64,000 nt of DNA from an uncultured Actinomycetes bacterium (GTDB lineage Bacteria > Actinomycetota > Thermoleophilia > UBA2241), in the NCBI GenBank assembly GCA_963767005.1, contig CAVYCN010000003.1:32001-96000 (forward strand). The letters are read 5' to 3'. The number at the start of each line of letters is the position of its first letter. Positions within the stretch are counted from its first letter, which is position 1. Shown in pieces: positions 46,297-50,497 of this stretch. Made by a program: the position numbers and the translations under genes. The notes beneath the pieces are model-generated. The model did no database searches. It was not told where the DNA came from and saw nothing but the letters and a program-made list of their open reading frames with translations.

Positions 46297-47232
46297 ATGC
46301 AGCACCACTTCCAGGGCAGAGACTTCCTGAAGCTCGCCGACTTCACCCCCGACGAGGTGCGCTTCATCGTCGACACGGCGATCGAGCTCAAGCGCAAGCG
46401 CCTGATCGGCGAGCTCTTCGAGCCGCTGCGCGGCAAGACCGTCGCCCTGATCTTCGAGAAGGCATCGACGCGCACCCGCCTGAGCTTTCAGGCGGGCATC
46501 GCCCAGCTCGGCGGCCAGACCTTCTACATGAGCCCCGACCAGATGCAGACCAGCCGCGGCGAGCCGATCTCAGACACGGCGCGCATCATCGACCGCTACT
46601 GCGAGGGCCTCTTCATCCGCACCTTCGGCCAGGAGGTCGTCGAGGAGTTCGCCCGCTACATGCTCAACCCGGTGATCAACGCGCTGACCAACGAGACCCA
46701 CCCCTGCCAAGGCCTCTGCGACCTGATGACGATCAAAGAGAAGAAGGGCCACTACAAGGGCCTCAAGGTCGCCTACCTGGGCGACATCTGGAACGTCTGC
46801 CACTCGCTCATGATGGGCTCCGCCATGCTCGGCATGGACTTCTACGCCGCCCAGCCCAACGAGAGCTATCAGCCCAACGCCGAGCAGCTCGCGATCGCCC
46901 AGAAGTGGGCCGCCCTCTCGGGGTCGAAGATCGTCTATACGCCCGACCTCGAAGAGGTCGCCGGCCAGGCCGACGTGATCTACGGCAACACCTGGCACTC
47001 GATGGCCACCGAGAACCGCGAGCAGCGCCTCAAGGACTTCGCCCCCTACCAGGTCAACATGCGCGTGATCGAGATGGCCAAGCCTGACGTGATCTACATG
47101 CACTGCCTGCCGGGCTACCGCGGCGAGGACATGGTCGACGAGGTCATCGAGAGCCCCTACTGCGCCTTCTGGGACCAGGGTGAGAACCGCATGCACACCG
47201 AGAAGGCCGTCGCCGCGCTCTTTCTCGGCTGA
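46297..47232 (+). CDS. Ornithine-carbamoyltransferase-family enzyme with atypical substrate loop
   Basis: STRTR, HPCQ, HCLP, ENRMH; NTWHSMA replaces DxxxSMG. Confidence 0.92.
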   Translation: MQHHFQGRDFLKLADFTPDEVRFIVDTAIELKRKRLIGELFEPLRGKTVALIFEKASTRTRLSFQAGIAQLGGQTFYMSPDQMQTSRGEPISDTARIIDRYCEGLFIRTFGQEVVEEFARYMLNPVINALTNETHPCQGLCDLMTIKEKKGHYKGLKVAYLGDIWNVCHSLMMGSAMLGMDFYAAQPNESYQPNAEQLAIAQKWAALSGSKIVYTPDLEEVAGQADVIYGNTWHSMATENREQRLKDFAPYQVNMRVIEMAKPDVIYMHCLPGYRGEDMVDEVIESPYCAFWDQGENRMHTEKAVAALFLG

Positions 47233-47328
47233 AGGAGCACGGCCCTTCGAATGATTCAGGGTCACCGCAGGGTCAACACGACGTCAATCACTGAAGCGCG
47301 GTCTGCTGCAAAGACGAGGAGGACAACA

Positions 47329-48252
47329 TTGGACACTCTCACAGAGTCTGCTGCATCAACACCCGTCAGCGAGCGATTCCCGGACGGATGGGGAGCATTC
47401 AGCAAGATCGGCTTGCTGCGGGACGTACTTCTCGGGGATCCAAGCTACTTCAGCTGGCACCCGACGAGCGCGATCTCACGGGCAACCCTGACCAACCTCG
47501 CAACCCGAGGCGTGGTCTACGACTCCGAGCTTGCCAAGCGACAGCACGAAGCCATGGTTCAGGTCTACCGGGAAGCCGGCGTGCGAGTTCACTTTGCCCG
47601 AGGCGACAAGGATGCTCCCTACTCGGTCTTCACCCGTGACTCAAGCGTGATGACCCCCTGGGGCCCTGTGATCATGAGCCTGCAGCCTGCGGTGCGTCGT
47701 CGCGACCACAGCACCGCGGTCGACTTCTACCACGCCGCTGGCATCCCGATCTGGAAGTGGATCACGGCTGGGCACATGGAGGGCGGCGACGTCGTCATCA
47801 TCGAGCCAGGTGTCGTGATGATCGGCTACTGCGAAGAGCGTTCACAGCAGTCTGGCGCAGAGCAGTTGGCTGGCTGGTTCAGAGAAGAGGGCTGGGAAGC
47901 TCTTGTGGTGGCCAACCCCGCCCACTTCGTTCACATGGACGCGCTCGTTCTGCCGGCCGCTCCCAAGACCGTCGTTCTCTGTCGCGATGCCCTTGAGGAC
48001 TACGTCACGGACTTCTTGAAAGCCCATGGCTATGACTTCATCGATGTGCCCTACAAGGACTGCGTTCGACTGGGTTGCAACGTCATGCCTTTGGGAAACG
48101 AGCGGATTCTCTCGCTCGAAAGCAACGACACCCTGAACAAGAAGCTGGGCGCTCTGGGTCTGAGTGTGTCTGCGGTCGACATGTCGATGTACGCCCTGGG
48201 TGGCGGCGGCGTGCATTGCCTCTCGATGGAGATCCGCCGAGAGGCAGAGTGA
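47329..48252 (+). CDS. Amidinotransferase/pentein family guanidino hydrolase (DDAH/arginine deiminase-like)
   Basis: FTRD, EGGD, HMD, GGGGVHC catalytic motifs; TTG start after AGGAGG. Confidence 0.88.
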   Translation: MDTLTESAASTPVSERFPDGWGAFSKIGLLRDVLLGDPSYFSWHPTSAISRATLTNLATRGVVYDSELAKRQHEAMVQVYREAGVRVHFARGDKDAPYSVFTRDSSVMTPWGPVIMSLQPAVRRRDHSTAVDFYHAAGIPIWKWITAGHMEGGDVVIIEPGVVMIGYCEERSQQSGAEQLAGWFREEGWEALVVANPAHFVHMDALVLPAAPKTVVLCRDALEDYVTDFLKAHGYDFIDVPYKDCVRLGCNVMPLGNERILSLESNDTLNKKLGALGLSVSAVDMSMYALGGGGVHCLSMEIRREAE

Positions 48253-48346
48253 GACCGGCTGACGATCTGCCTCTCAGATTCGGTACTGCGCCAACCGTTC
48301 GCCAGCAACTGTCGGAAAGCCAAAGTGGAAAGGGGGGAATCGAACC

Positions 48347-49765
48347 GTGAGCACCTCAGCATCCACCGTCCGGAAGACCCTGCCCGAGCGGCCGGGCGTC
48401 TTTGTGGCCTACGAGCGCGCCATGAAGGGGCCCAAGGTCGACGAGAAGGACTGGGACTATCACGTCATTCCCGAGACCGCTAAGCGCCTCAAGGAAAAGT
48501 ACGGGATCGCGATGGACAAACACGTCATGATCCCGACCGACCCCGACCTCATGAAGCGCCTCTATCAGGCCGGCCTTGAGATGCTGGTCGAGTGCGGCAT
48601 CTACTGCATCGACACGGGCCGCGTCATCAAGTGGAGCGAAGAGGAAGTGCTCTGGGGCGTCGCCCACGCTCCCAGGGCGGCAGTCATCGGCGAGGGCCTG
48701 CACGGCCGGCCGCTCGTGCCACGCCACGCAAACGACCCGCGACCGCCGCTCGTGCAGGGCGGTCCCACCGGCGCGCCCTGCAGCGAGAAGCACTTCTTCG
48801 GCATCCACTACTCCTACGCCAAGGAGGGCATCGTCGACTGCATTGTCGACGGCGTGCTGGAGACGATCGACGGCTACAACCCCGCGCCGGACAGCCCCTG
48901 GGAGGTGATGGCCGGCAAGCAGGAGGTGCTCTACGTGCGCCAGGCTCAGGCTCGAGCCAACCGCTCGGGCATGGGGTTATAGGGCCCCGAGACGCCGCTC
49001 GCCCCAGCCTCCGTCATTGCGGCGGACTTCCCCGGTGGCATGCGGGCGTCGGACAACCACGAGGTGTCGCAGCTCAATGAGCTGAAGTGCGACGCAGGGG
49101 CGTTGACCTTCACGGCTCATTACAACCAAGCGGCAGACATCATCATGGTTGAGCAGATGCCGATCTATGGCGGCTTCGCCGGTGGCCTCGAGGAGAGCAC
49201 CATCGTCGACTGCGCCACCCATCTGAACTCGTTCGTCATGTACGGCGGCACCTGGCACTTGGACGGCCCGGTCCACATGCGCTGGGGCATCACGACGACA
49301 AGAGAGGCTCTGGCCATCGCGGGCCACGCCAACCGCGCCATCGAGGAGGCCCATCCCCACTTGCTGACCGGCAACCAGTACTACACCCTGGCCGGCCCCT
49401 GCACCGTGATGTGTCTTCTGGAGACCGCCGCGCAAGCGATCACCGATACCGGCAGCGGCCGCGAGATCATGTCCGGAGTGGCAGCCGCCAAGGGCGTCAT
49501 TATCAACAAGACGACCGGCATGGAGGCACGCTTCATGGGCGAGTGCGCCCACGCCGTGGCCGGCCTGCCGATCGAGCAGGTCAACGAGATCCTCGACGCC
49601 CTGGTCGCCCGCTACGAGGGCAACTACAAGGCGGCCCCCGAAGGCAAGCCCTACGAGGACTGCTACGACACCGTCAAGGTGGTGCCCACCGACGAGTACC
49701 TCGGCGTCTACGACGCAGCCGTCACGGAGCTCGAGGGTCTCGGCGTCCACTACAAGCTCTGGTGA
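48347..49765 (+). CDS. mtmB: Monomethylamine:corrinoid methyltransferase with in-frame TAG (pyrrolysine) at 48980-48982
   Basis: Two same-frame ORFs joined via GMGL-TAG-GPET; HEVSQLNELK, EQMPIYGG, HLDGPVH.RWG, GNQYY, SGRE, KTTGMEAR match MtmB. Confidence 0.96.
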
Positions 49766-49846
49766 CGAGGGCAGGTGAGTCGACCATGGATGGCCTTGGG
49801 GCTCTACCTGTCGGACCCTGGGAGCCGTGAGGAGGACGAGCGAGCG

Positions 49847-50497
49847 ATGGCAGACGAAGAGCTGATCAGAGAGGCGCGGCAGTCGCTTCTCGAGCACGAC
49901 AAAGAGAGGGCGACTGATGTCGCCAAGCGCGGGCTGGCAGCCGGCATCAGCCCCGAGAGGCTGATGAACGAGGGCTTTATTGCCGGGATCCGCGAGCTCG
50001 GCGAGCGCTTCGACGAGGGCGAGGTCTTCCTGCCCGAACTGATGCTCGCGGCCGAGGCGATGGAGGCCGCCATGGCGGTCTGCAACGCCGCCCTGCCCGA
50101 GGGCCAGAGCGAATCACGGGGCACCGTGGTGATCGGCACGGTCAAGGGCGACGTCCACGACATCGGCAAGGCGATCGTGGTCTCCTACCTGCGCGCCAGT
50201 GGCTACGCGGTCTTCGACCTCGGTCGCGATGTCGAGGCCGAGACGTTCGTCGAGCAGGCGATTGCCCGTAAGGCCGACATCGTCGGTTCAAGCGCGTTGC
50301 TCACCGCCACTTTGCGCCAGCAGCGTGACATCGAGGAGGCTCTGCGTGAGGCCGGGGTGCGCTACAAGGTGAGGACCGTCGTCGGCGGCGCAGTGTGTAC
50401 GCAGGGCTGGGCGAGCGAGATCGGCGCCGATGCGTACGCTAGAGATGCGCTCGACGGCGTGAACAAGATCGAAGCGCTCATCGGGGCTCGCGTCTGA
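49847..50497 (+). CDS. Cognate corrinoid protein (MtmC-like)
   Basis: GDVHDIGK, DLGRDV, SALLT, VGGA; directly after mtmB. Confidence 0.9.
   Translation: MADEELIREARQSLLEHDKERATDVAKRGLAAGISPERLMNEGFIAGIRELGERFDEGEVFLPELMLAAEAMEAAMAVCNAALPEGQSESRGTVVIGTVKGDVHDIGKAIVVSYLRASGYAVFDLGRDVEAETFVEQAIARKADIVGSSALLTATLRQQRDIEEALREAGVRYKVRTVVGGAVCTQGWASEIGADAYARDALDGVNKIEALIGARV

Follow-up and report, generated by a model that had tools for sequence, protein, structure and literature searches.

Two described fermentations couple a guanidino hydrolase to a transcarbamylase and a carbamate kinase, namely the arginine deiminase (ADI) pathway (ArcA, catabolic ArcB, ArcC and ArcD) and the agmatine deiminase pathway (AguA, putrescine transcarbamylase and AguC). 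Further points of comparison are dimethylarginine dimethylaminohydrolase (DDAH), represented by P. aeruginosa DdaH and human DDAH1; the diaminopropionate and diaminobutyrate transcarbamylases (DPTCase and DBTCase); and the pyrrolysine (Pyl)-containing MtmB of Methanosarcina barkeri with its corrinoid protein MtmC. Relatives of these enzymes stand together in a 64,000-nucleotide stretch (the window; G000:C3:32001-96000) from an uncultured Actinomycetes bacterium whose genome comprises 3.44 Mb in 19 contigs at approximately 71% GC. As had been predicted from the sequence, four co-oriented genes on the forward strand encode a non-canonical ornithine-transcarbamylase (OTC)-like protein, which we call OTC* (46297..47232, 311 aa); a compact ADI-like pentein hydrolase, pentein-A (open reading frame 47251-48252); the monomethylamine:corrinoid methyltransferase MtmB (48347..49765); and a cognate, mtmC-like corrinoid protein (49847..50497, above the TIGR02370 cut-off). 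A divergent APC-family permease (44146-45777, reverse strand) and the carbamate kinase gene arcC (37562-38653, reverse strand; TIGR00746, 411.7 bits against a cut-off of 358.25) were likewise present as predicted. The original prediction went on to propose that the locus ferments an N-methylated guanidino compound, either N-methylarginine, cleaved to citrulline and methylamine, or methylguanidine, converted by way of methylurea to methylamine and carbamoyl phosphate.

We favor a different explanation, to which we assign a probability of about 0.45: pentein-A, OTC* and the nearby ArcC would ferment a guanidino acid in which a carboxylate is present but a free alpha-amino group is not, and methylamine from other sources would be demethylated by the neighboring MtmB. 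The APC permease would take up the guanidino acid, pentein-A would release ammonia to leave a ureido acid, OTC* would phosphorolyse this to an amine and carbamoyl phosphate, and ArcC would make ATP. Candidate substrates include 4-guanidinobutyrate or another omega-guanidino acid, 2-oxo- or 2-hydroxy-arginine, and N-alpha-acylarginine. MtmB and MtmC would draw methylamine from the environment or from the eight MtbB paralogues described below, and the methyl group would go to tetrahydrofolate. The sequence itself shows what the genes encode, that the amber codon of mtmB falls at the Pyl position, which residues have changed, that OTC* and arcC were copied from other loci, and that the synteny does not recur; the steps from uptake to ATP are inferred. 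The part of the original prediction that called for an ATP-yielding deiminase, transcarbamylase and carbamate kinase route remains likely.

Pentein-A resembles DDAH in its size, in its fold (DDAH supplies the top Foldseek hits, at 19-20% identity), in its Cys-His-Glu triad and in two carboxylate-binding arginines. Its predicted structure (pLDDT 90.4) is a pentein fold, with 15-21% identity to DDAH, ADI, ArgZ and NnhA. Alignment to solved enzymes places the catalytic residues at C297, H202 and E151, the guanidinium-binding residues at D104 and D204, and the carboxylate-binding residues at R123 and R171; Tyr98 occupies the alpha-amino-binding position, and the helical insert of ADI is absent. 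In P. aeruginosa ADI numbering, D204, R103, D104, R123, R171 and position 98 correspond to D280, R165, D166, R185, R243 and N160; in DDAH, position 98 is Asp60. Ten residues (R103, D104, R123, E151, R171, H202, D204, N251, H296 and C297) are invariant in 120/120 homologues of pentein-A, whereas none of the 120 has Asn or Asp at position 98. As described in the accessible part of PMC3474736, the two arginines of ADI bind the substrate carboxylate and the Asn is among the amino and carboxylate contacts; similarly, the available part of PMC11659421 states that the DDAH Lys at the His+2 site makes room for the methylated amino group. Where DDAH reads VED and HLK, pentein-A reads TRD and HMD, so that the methyl-accommodating Lys is replaced by Asp and the amine-binding Asp60 by Tyr; both Asp204 and Arg103 hold in 120/120 homologues. 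Pentein-A thus carries the ADI signature residues (RD, EGGD, HxD, Cys and the two carboxylate-binding Arg) and departs from ADI in the missing insert (307 versus about 410 aa), in the Asn160 equivalent and in its score against TIGR01078 (63 bits; cut-off 489). It matches PF02274/PF19420 and not the agmatine deiminase models, and it falls far under the cut-off of every curated NCBIfam family, including the three dimethylargininase models (74/340, 51/300 and 43/450 bits, score/cut-off). Based on these residues, the substrate of pentein-A is predicted to bear a carboxylate and either to lack an alpha-amino group or to have it modified, and ammonia is the predicted leaving group; slow release of methylamine is possible. 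We found no paper on N-methylarginine turnover by ADI-type sites in the openly licensed literature, and the accessible parts of PMC12283126 and PMC13625781 do not mention the pentein-A family.

OTC* belongs to the OTC branch (TIGR00658, 354.7 bits; cut-off 280.85). Its carbamoyl-phosphate motifs are intact (FEKASTRT, HPCQ and HCLP, corresponding to SxRT, HPxQ and HxLP), and its AlphaFold model has a pLDDT of 91.8. It departs from OTC at the DxxxSMG motif, which reads NTWHSMA, and reads GDIWN at the GDGNN position. The DxxxSMG Asp binds ornithine according to the accessible part of PMC4581275, and the portions available of PMC8517447 and PMC4581275 name it as an ornithine contact and treat the motif as diagnostic. 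Among the 120 best OTC* homologues the site is Asn in 117, Met in 1 and unreadable in 2, and never Asp; the separate, canonical OTC of the same genome keeps the Asp. DPTCase and DBTCase are likewise OTC-branch enzymes in which this Asp is replaced, as reported in the same part of PMC4581275, but they have Thr/Ser with HDLP where OTC* has Asn with HCLP. The locus follows the three-step logic of the agmatine deiminase pathway; unlike that pathway, it has a hydrolase of the PF02274/PF19420 type and a transcarbamylase that scores 257 against the putrescine carbamoyltransferase (PTCase) cut-off of 500 (TIGR04384) and lacks the PTCase (Y/W)(G/W)(V/L/I) loop, FxQ Gln and C-terminal extension. A search of the openly licensed literature found no description of the OTC* subfamily. 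Four more transcarbamylase paralogues, with Trp-rich loops, are encoded in the genome (G000:C3:29573, C3:325823, C3:359916 and C4:465581); two adjoin agmatine-deiminase-like genes, and one has lost the SxRT serine.

Because pentein-A lacks Asn or Asp at position 98 and OTC* lacks the DxxxSMG Asp, both enzymes have lost the alpha-amino contact, which points to a carboxylate-bearing guanidino acid that offers no free alpha-amino group. The N-methylarginine route of the original prediction is left unsupported because Asp replaces the methyl-accommodating Lys and OTC* has lost the ornithine-binding Asp. The same losses (120/120 pentein and 117/120 OTC* homologues) tell against a plain ADI pathway, in which a compact ADI would act together with a divergent catabolic OTC and mtmB would be an unrelated neighbor. 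This alternative nonetheless draws on several observations. The best matches of the pentein-A family profile are ADI structures, OTC* clears the OTCase cut-off, and three short penteins are the only PF02274 matches in the genome, in which no full-length arcA was found. The locus shares with the ADI pathway its ADI-type catalytic residues, an OTC-branch transcarbamylase, a carbamate kinase and a permease; its arcC, however, lies 7.6 kb from the four-gene block, on the opposite strand. A related cluster on a plasmid of cultured Enterococcus mundtii DSM 4838 (NZ_CP018062.1, L221:7943-13881) comprises PucR, an OTC whose DxxxSMG Asp is replaced by Met, the carrier YfcC and a pentein. The YfcC presumably has an ArcD-like role.

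The aerobic-type relatives of pentein-A also bear on arginine. Relatives at 41-48% identity are present in 35/400 genomes of the class, none of them in its own family. Twenty of their loci, from 19 genomes, contain a carbamoylase-family M20 hydrolase in 16/20 and an Orn/Lys/Arg-type decarboxylase in 16/20. The M20 hydrolase would be the expected partner for a ureido acid product, and two of three plasmid loci of pentein-A relatives pair the pentein with a Zn-dependent hydrolase. Such decarboxylase-pentein-carbamoylase operons could make putrescine from arginine, as a plain arginine reading would have it. The accessible part of PMC8503589, however, describes actinobacterial decarboxylases of this fold as having no known function and as probably unrelated to polyamines; the aerobe decarboxylases may belong to that clade. 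Taking both sides together, we consider the plain ADI pathway unlikely. As a separate observation, the operon of Orn/Lys/Arg-type decarboxylase, short pentein and M20 carbamoylase is conserved in one family of the class (f7, loci L189-L204), and it may represent an undescribed route to or from polyamines.

The identity of MtmB is well supported. The gene has a single in-frame TAG, at codon 212 (48980-48982), which in a full-length alignment coincides with the pyrrolysine of M. barkeri MtmB (1L2Q/1TV2; E 3e-158). The same contig carries pylT (C3:242986-243058) and pylSn, pylSc, pylB, pylC and pylD, all above their cut-offs. With its adjacent corrinoid protein the locus thus parallels the M. barkeri system, and the claim that MtmB is a genuine Pyl enzyme is upheld by these sequence features. 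The genome also encodes a methyl-tetrahydrofolate:corrinoid methyltransferase, MTHFR, FTHFS and a RACo activator, so the predicted entry of the methyl group into C1 metabolism is within its capabilities; no match to the CdhC/acetyl-CoA synthase family was found in the genome, in a search whose controls were positive. Given the folate-side genes and the lack of a CdhC match, the methyl group would go to folate rather than to acetyl-CoA. The locus differs from that of M. barkeri in its bacterial host, in this likely tetrahydrofolate acceptor and in having no acetyl-CoA synthase family match in its genome. MtbB-type demethylation chemistry can supply methylamine. Eight TAG-containing MtbB genes (G000:C2:296264; C18:36023, 96347, 97906 and 101967; C3:157097; C6:54427; C11:80248) could therefore provide it independently of the locus. 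In addition, the genome contains three Pyl-free MtmB homologues and roughly 30 MttB-family matches, and the abundance of Pyl and MttB paralogues suggests activity on many N-methylated amines. A tRNA-Sec gene (G000:C4:389248) accompanies tRNA-Pyl, and the organism likely uses 22 amino acids.

The original prediction made recurring synteny its own test, and across the Actinomycetota, to which our synteny comparisons were confined, we found none beyond close strains. A TAG-containing mtmB is present in 14/400 other genomes of the class, where its neighbors are mtbB-like genes, pyl genes, transporters and corrinoid proteins; a pentein, OTC or arcC match was found near it in 0/14 of the fetched stretches, four of which are contigs under 8 kb and one of which is cut at a contig end. 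Conversely, OTC* occurs in 22/88 other genomes of the family. We fetched 18 of its loci, not including those of four genomes on short contigs (G103, G058, G043 and G053), and scored 17 of them, L110 (a frameshifted OTC* in G022) being passed over by the longest-hit rule. These 17 loci contain a different pentein, approximately 30% identical to pentein-A (15/17), PucR (15/17), a cyclase (12/17) and arcC (5/17); none has an mtmB, mtmC or mttB match, and an mtbB match was found in 0/20 fetched loci. Likewise, no OTC, arcC, mtmB or other methyltransferase match and no corrinoid gene was found in the 20 loci of the 41-48% pentein-A relatives. An OTC* profile run over 400 other Actinomycetota genomes, one of them from the same family, gave no match at E<=1e-125. 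Among the genomes searched, then, only those of this organism and of close strains have the deiminase part joined to mtmB; a direct chemical link between the two is possible.

Co-occurrence also bears on the methylguanidine route, in which methylguanidine would be deiminated to methylurea and OTC* would phosphorolyse methylurea to methylamine and carbamoyl phosphate. An ADI-type site would indeed release ammonia, the bulky residues of GDIWN and NTWH could shrink the acceptor pocket of OTC*, and methylguanidine occurs in nature, as noted in the accessible part of PMC12623156. However, both carboxylate-binding Arg are invariant in the pentein-A homologues, OTC* keeps the equivalents of K53, N167, S235 and M236, and of 79 family genomes 20 carry OTC* and 8 carry Pyl-mtmB, with both present in 3 (Fisher p=0.41; we assume from identical tallies that both counts come from the same draw, in which kin are not independent and genomes are incomplete). 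Because both carboxylate-binding Arg are invariant and OTC* is found mostly where no Pyl-mtmB was found, this route is unsupported as well, and we regard it as very improbable. An N-methylcarbamoyl-phosphate intermediate was considered and rejected, since OTC* has a canonical HPxQ carbamoyl site and does not differ from the copy that sits in a non-methyl cluster.

Several observations weigh against the explanation that we favor. Its substrate is deduced from few alignment positions, which weakens it, and the decarboxylase in 16/20 aerobic-relative loci fits a conversion of plain arginine to putrescine. The mtmB comparison includes 4/14 contigs under 8 kb and one cut at its end, and the pentein-A relatives in the synteny comparison are those at 41-48% identity, more distant than the closest ones (approximately 70%). 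As the strongest counterpoint, the island swaps the usual pentein for pentein-A, keeps an identical OTC* and adds mtmB-mtmC in an apparent single transcript, in a gene order that close strains retain; retargeting to a methylated substrate would look like this.

The corresponding alternative is that pentein-A cleaves methylamine, rather than ammonia, from an N-omega-methylated substrate to give the same ureido acid for OTC*, with MtmB and MtmC capturing the methyl group; N-methylarginine would be the least likely form of that substrate. In addition to the pentein swap beside an OTC* identical to the copy on contig C18, this account can point to the arrangement of the four genes. Spacers within the block are 81-96 bp, where folding is not above chance, and a GC hairpin at 50592..50626 (forward strand, 3' of mtmC; z -3.4 to -6.1, with 0/200 shuffles folding as well) is a likely terminator that lacks a U-tract; this layout is consistent with one transcript, though it is not proof. 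Furthermore, arcC and OTC* have both been copied recently into a methyltransferase-rich island, the same gene set is indicated in close strains, and five pentein-A sequences group in a separate clade with good support. On the other hand, the leaving-group-site residues (R103, D204 and H296) are all ADI-type within this clade too, the DDAH models score far below their cut-offs, the 41-48% relatives have no mtmB or corrinoid gene in any of their 20 loci, and the MtbB paralogues could already supply methylamine. Two penteins approximately 70% identical to pentein-A lie on contigs of the same size as those of OTC* proteins (89,657 and 4,487 bp), from which we infer that the pentein-OTC* pair recurs in these relatives; no MtmB on contigs of either size was among the matches listed. 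We hold such methylamine release to be rather unlikely. That methylamine freed by pentein-A feeds MtmB can be entertained tentatively, and the same guarded standing applies to the new pathway that would follow, in which a swapped-in pentein frees methylamine from an N-methylated guanidino acid, the copied OTC* and ArcC make ATP and MtmB harvests the methyl group, the whole being caught soon after intragenomic copying.

A methylated substrate could also carry its methyl group on the backbone, as do creatine and N-alpha-methylarginine. Deimination and phosphorolysis would then yield an N-methyl amino acid, to be demethylated by MttB or MtbB or to have its methylamine freed by an unlinked enzyme. 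Substrates of this kind combine a carboxylate with the lack of a free alpha-amino group, the island contains a Pyl-free MttB-superfamily methyltransferase (38864-40366, reverse strand) and three corrinoid proteins, one of them next to the MttB gene (40381-41022, reverse strand), and one aerobic pentein-A relative adjoins a betaine-type ABC transporter. Yet the MttB-corrinoid pair (38864..41022) is 75-78% identical in G024 with no deiminase genes nearby, and the MttB module occurs without deiminase genes in the fetched stretches of G024, G014 and G004. There is also no MttB match in the 17 OTC* loci and no MtbB match in the 20 fetched loci. A search of the genome for the glycine/sarcosine reductase family gave no match, which counts weakly because the search controls were silent too. 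We judge a backbone-methylated substrate improbable.

The history of the locus is recorded in its copies. The copy at G000:C18:84746-85689 matches OTC* DNA at 100% identity from the ribosome-binding site to near the stop codon (46280-47223), and another at C3:4156-5096, which is frameshifted, matches it at 99%. Window positions 37668-38837, comprising the arcC segment and, upstream, the 3' stub of another carbamoyltransferase (segment 37562..38837, reverse strand), are a 99.8% copy of G000:C4:466478-467647, which is part of an agmatine deiminase operon; the C-terminal tail of the window ArcC differs from that of the native copy. GC content at third codon positions (GC3) is 0.96 for OTC* and 0.93 for arcC, against a genome median of 0.94, and so appears native; it is 0.68-0.77 for pentein-A and the left-hand genes and 0.85-0.89 for mtmB and mtmC. 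In the explanation that we favor, the organism is an amine-scavenging anaerobe and the cluster a mosaic island that was put together recently. Two more OTC* clusters in the genome (C18:79769-89695 and C3:3447-8893) have a second pentein, 860 bp of which are identical between them, along with a nitrilase-family amidase, an NCS1 or APC permease, a cyclase, PucR, an iron-containing alcohol dehydrogenase (Fe-ADH) and an acyl-D-amino-acid deacylase-like gene; the C18 cluster lies approximately 6.6 kb from three mtbB genes, and its pentein is 47% identical to that of E. mundtii DSM 4838.

Gene-sized, near-identical copies together with the GC3 contrast raise the question of mis-assembly, in which identical repeats would have joined unrelated pieces. 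The genome does contain several gene-sized repeats at 99.7-100% between contigs, OTC* and arcC among them, the GC3 values of these two are unlike those of most neighbors, and no contig in four public runs bridges the gap between pentein-A and mtmB. However, a contig of another public run (X2) spans the OTC*-pentein-A junction (47184-47915) with 16 differences in 732 bases, a contig of run X3 bridges mtmB and mtmC, and variant proteins co-occur on contigs of equal size: OTC*, pentein and the start of MtmB at 27,530 bp, and pentein with both MtmB halves at 8,111 bp. Equal contig size is the sole basis on which these indicate the same gene set in other close strains. We take the four-gene block to be real in close strains and an artifact to be the most improbable of the alternatives; the arcC insertion is putative. 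Other such repeats, which may be either real gene copying or assembly collapse, include dehydrogenase-like genes at C3:99261 and C3:101007, a corrinoid gene and a phosphoesterase pair.

What survives of the original prediction is a deiminase/transcarbamylase/kinase variant for which we found no published description and which is also present in cultured E. mundtii; its linkage to Pyl-dependent methyl transfer is undescribed as well, as far as the openly licensed literature extends. Even without a methyl link, the ornithine-binding Asp is gone from a transcarbamylase subfamily that carries the annotation argF and that travels with short penteins. This implies an unrecognized ATP-yielding fermentation and widespread mis-annotation, and E. 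mundtii makes it testable. If methylamine release were true, guanidino-compound fermentation would be linked to Pyl-dependent C1 metabolism in soil and peat anaerobes; close matches to the locus sit in contigs of soil and peat runs. One substrate would then provide ATP, nitrogen and a folate-bound C1 unit.

Regarding gene starts and signals, the likelier start of pentein-A is TTG at 47329, which stands behind AGGAGG and gives the 307-aa form, also recorded in the protein collection. No Rfam match was found in the 33-52 kb region of the window, and no sigma-70 promoter match at the locus. Homologues of the APC permease occur in 11/17 OTC* loci. Beside it on the reverse strand are a metallophosphoesterase-like protein (43102..44061; a PRK09453 match at E 4.5e-4, far under the cut-off), with homologues in 12/17 OTC* loci; an Fe-ADH (41803..42969), with homologues in 5/17; and an XRE-cupin transcription regulator (41179..41796). 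Left of arcC, segment 34110..37515 of the forward strand encodes a TetR-type regulator, followed by a corrinoid protein (35697-36344) and a methyltransferase of the UroD/MtaA superfamily (36355-37515). The last had been predicted as MtaA-family: the gene is present, but its MtaA identity is weak (36-40 bits against cut-offs of 235-244), and its sole solved-structure match is CdmB. This trio also occurs in G024, where the MttB and UroD-methyltransferase module is kept and a peptide-type ABC transporter stands where the window has arcC.

Further relatives fill in the distribution of the pentein. A pentein-A search of genome contigs returned one distant locus (31%), and a metagenome scan returned five at 50-61%, of which L114, L116 and L117 were read; these three lack both a carbamoyltransferase and mtmB, and the genes they show are for an FAD oxidoreductase, a solute-binding protein and a sugar-type ABC transporter. 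A pentein at 72% identity is labeled Thermoleophilia. Clusters that closely resemble this one are most frequent in Chloroflexota, Thermoproteota and Bacillota. In L110 and L112 (G022 and G006), the neighbors of a third pentein type are SDRs, a deacetylase and a gene that is N-acetylornithine-transcarbamylase-like (275 of 288 bits), which hints at N-acylarginine use.

The metabolic island is flanked by integrase fragments (12245-13500) and by two sets of ParB/methyltransferase-like and terminase-like ORFs (16517-19813 and 54938-58168), named by eye from their translations, which suggest prophage remnants. A peptide-type ABC transporter, a prolyl-oligopeptidase-like gene and a GntR-like regulator, also named by eye, lie at 20945-28202. 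At the right edge of the island, a 103-bp fragment (50818-50920), 94% identical to C4:126126 and kept across relatives, looks like a piece of a housekeeping gene that marks the insertion site.

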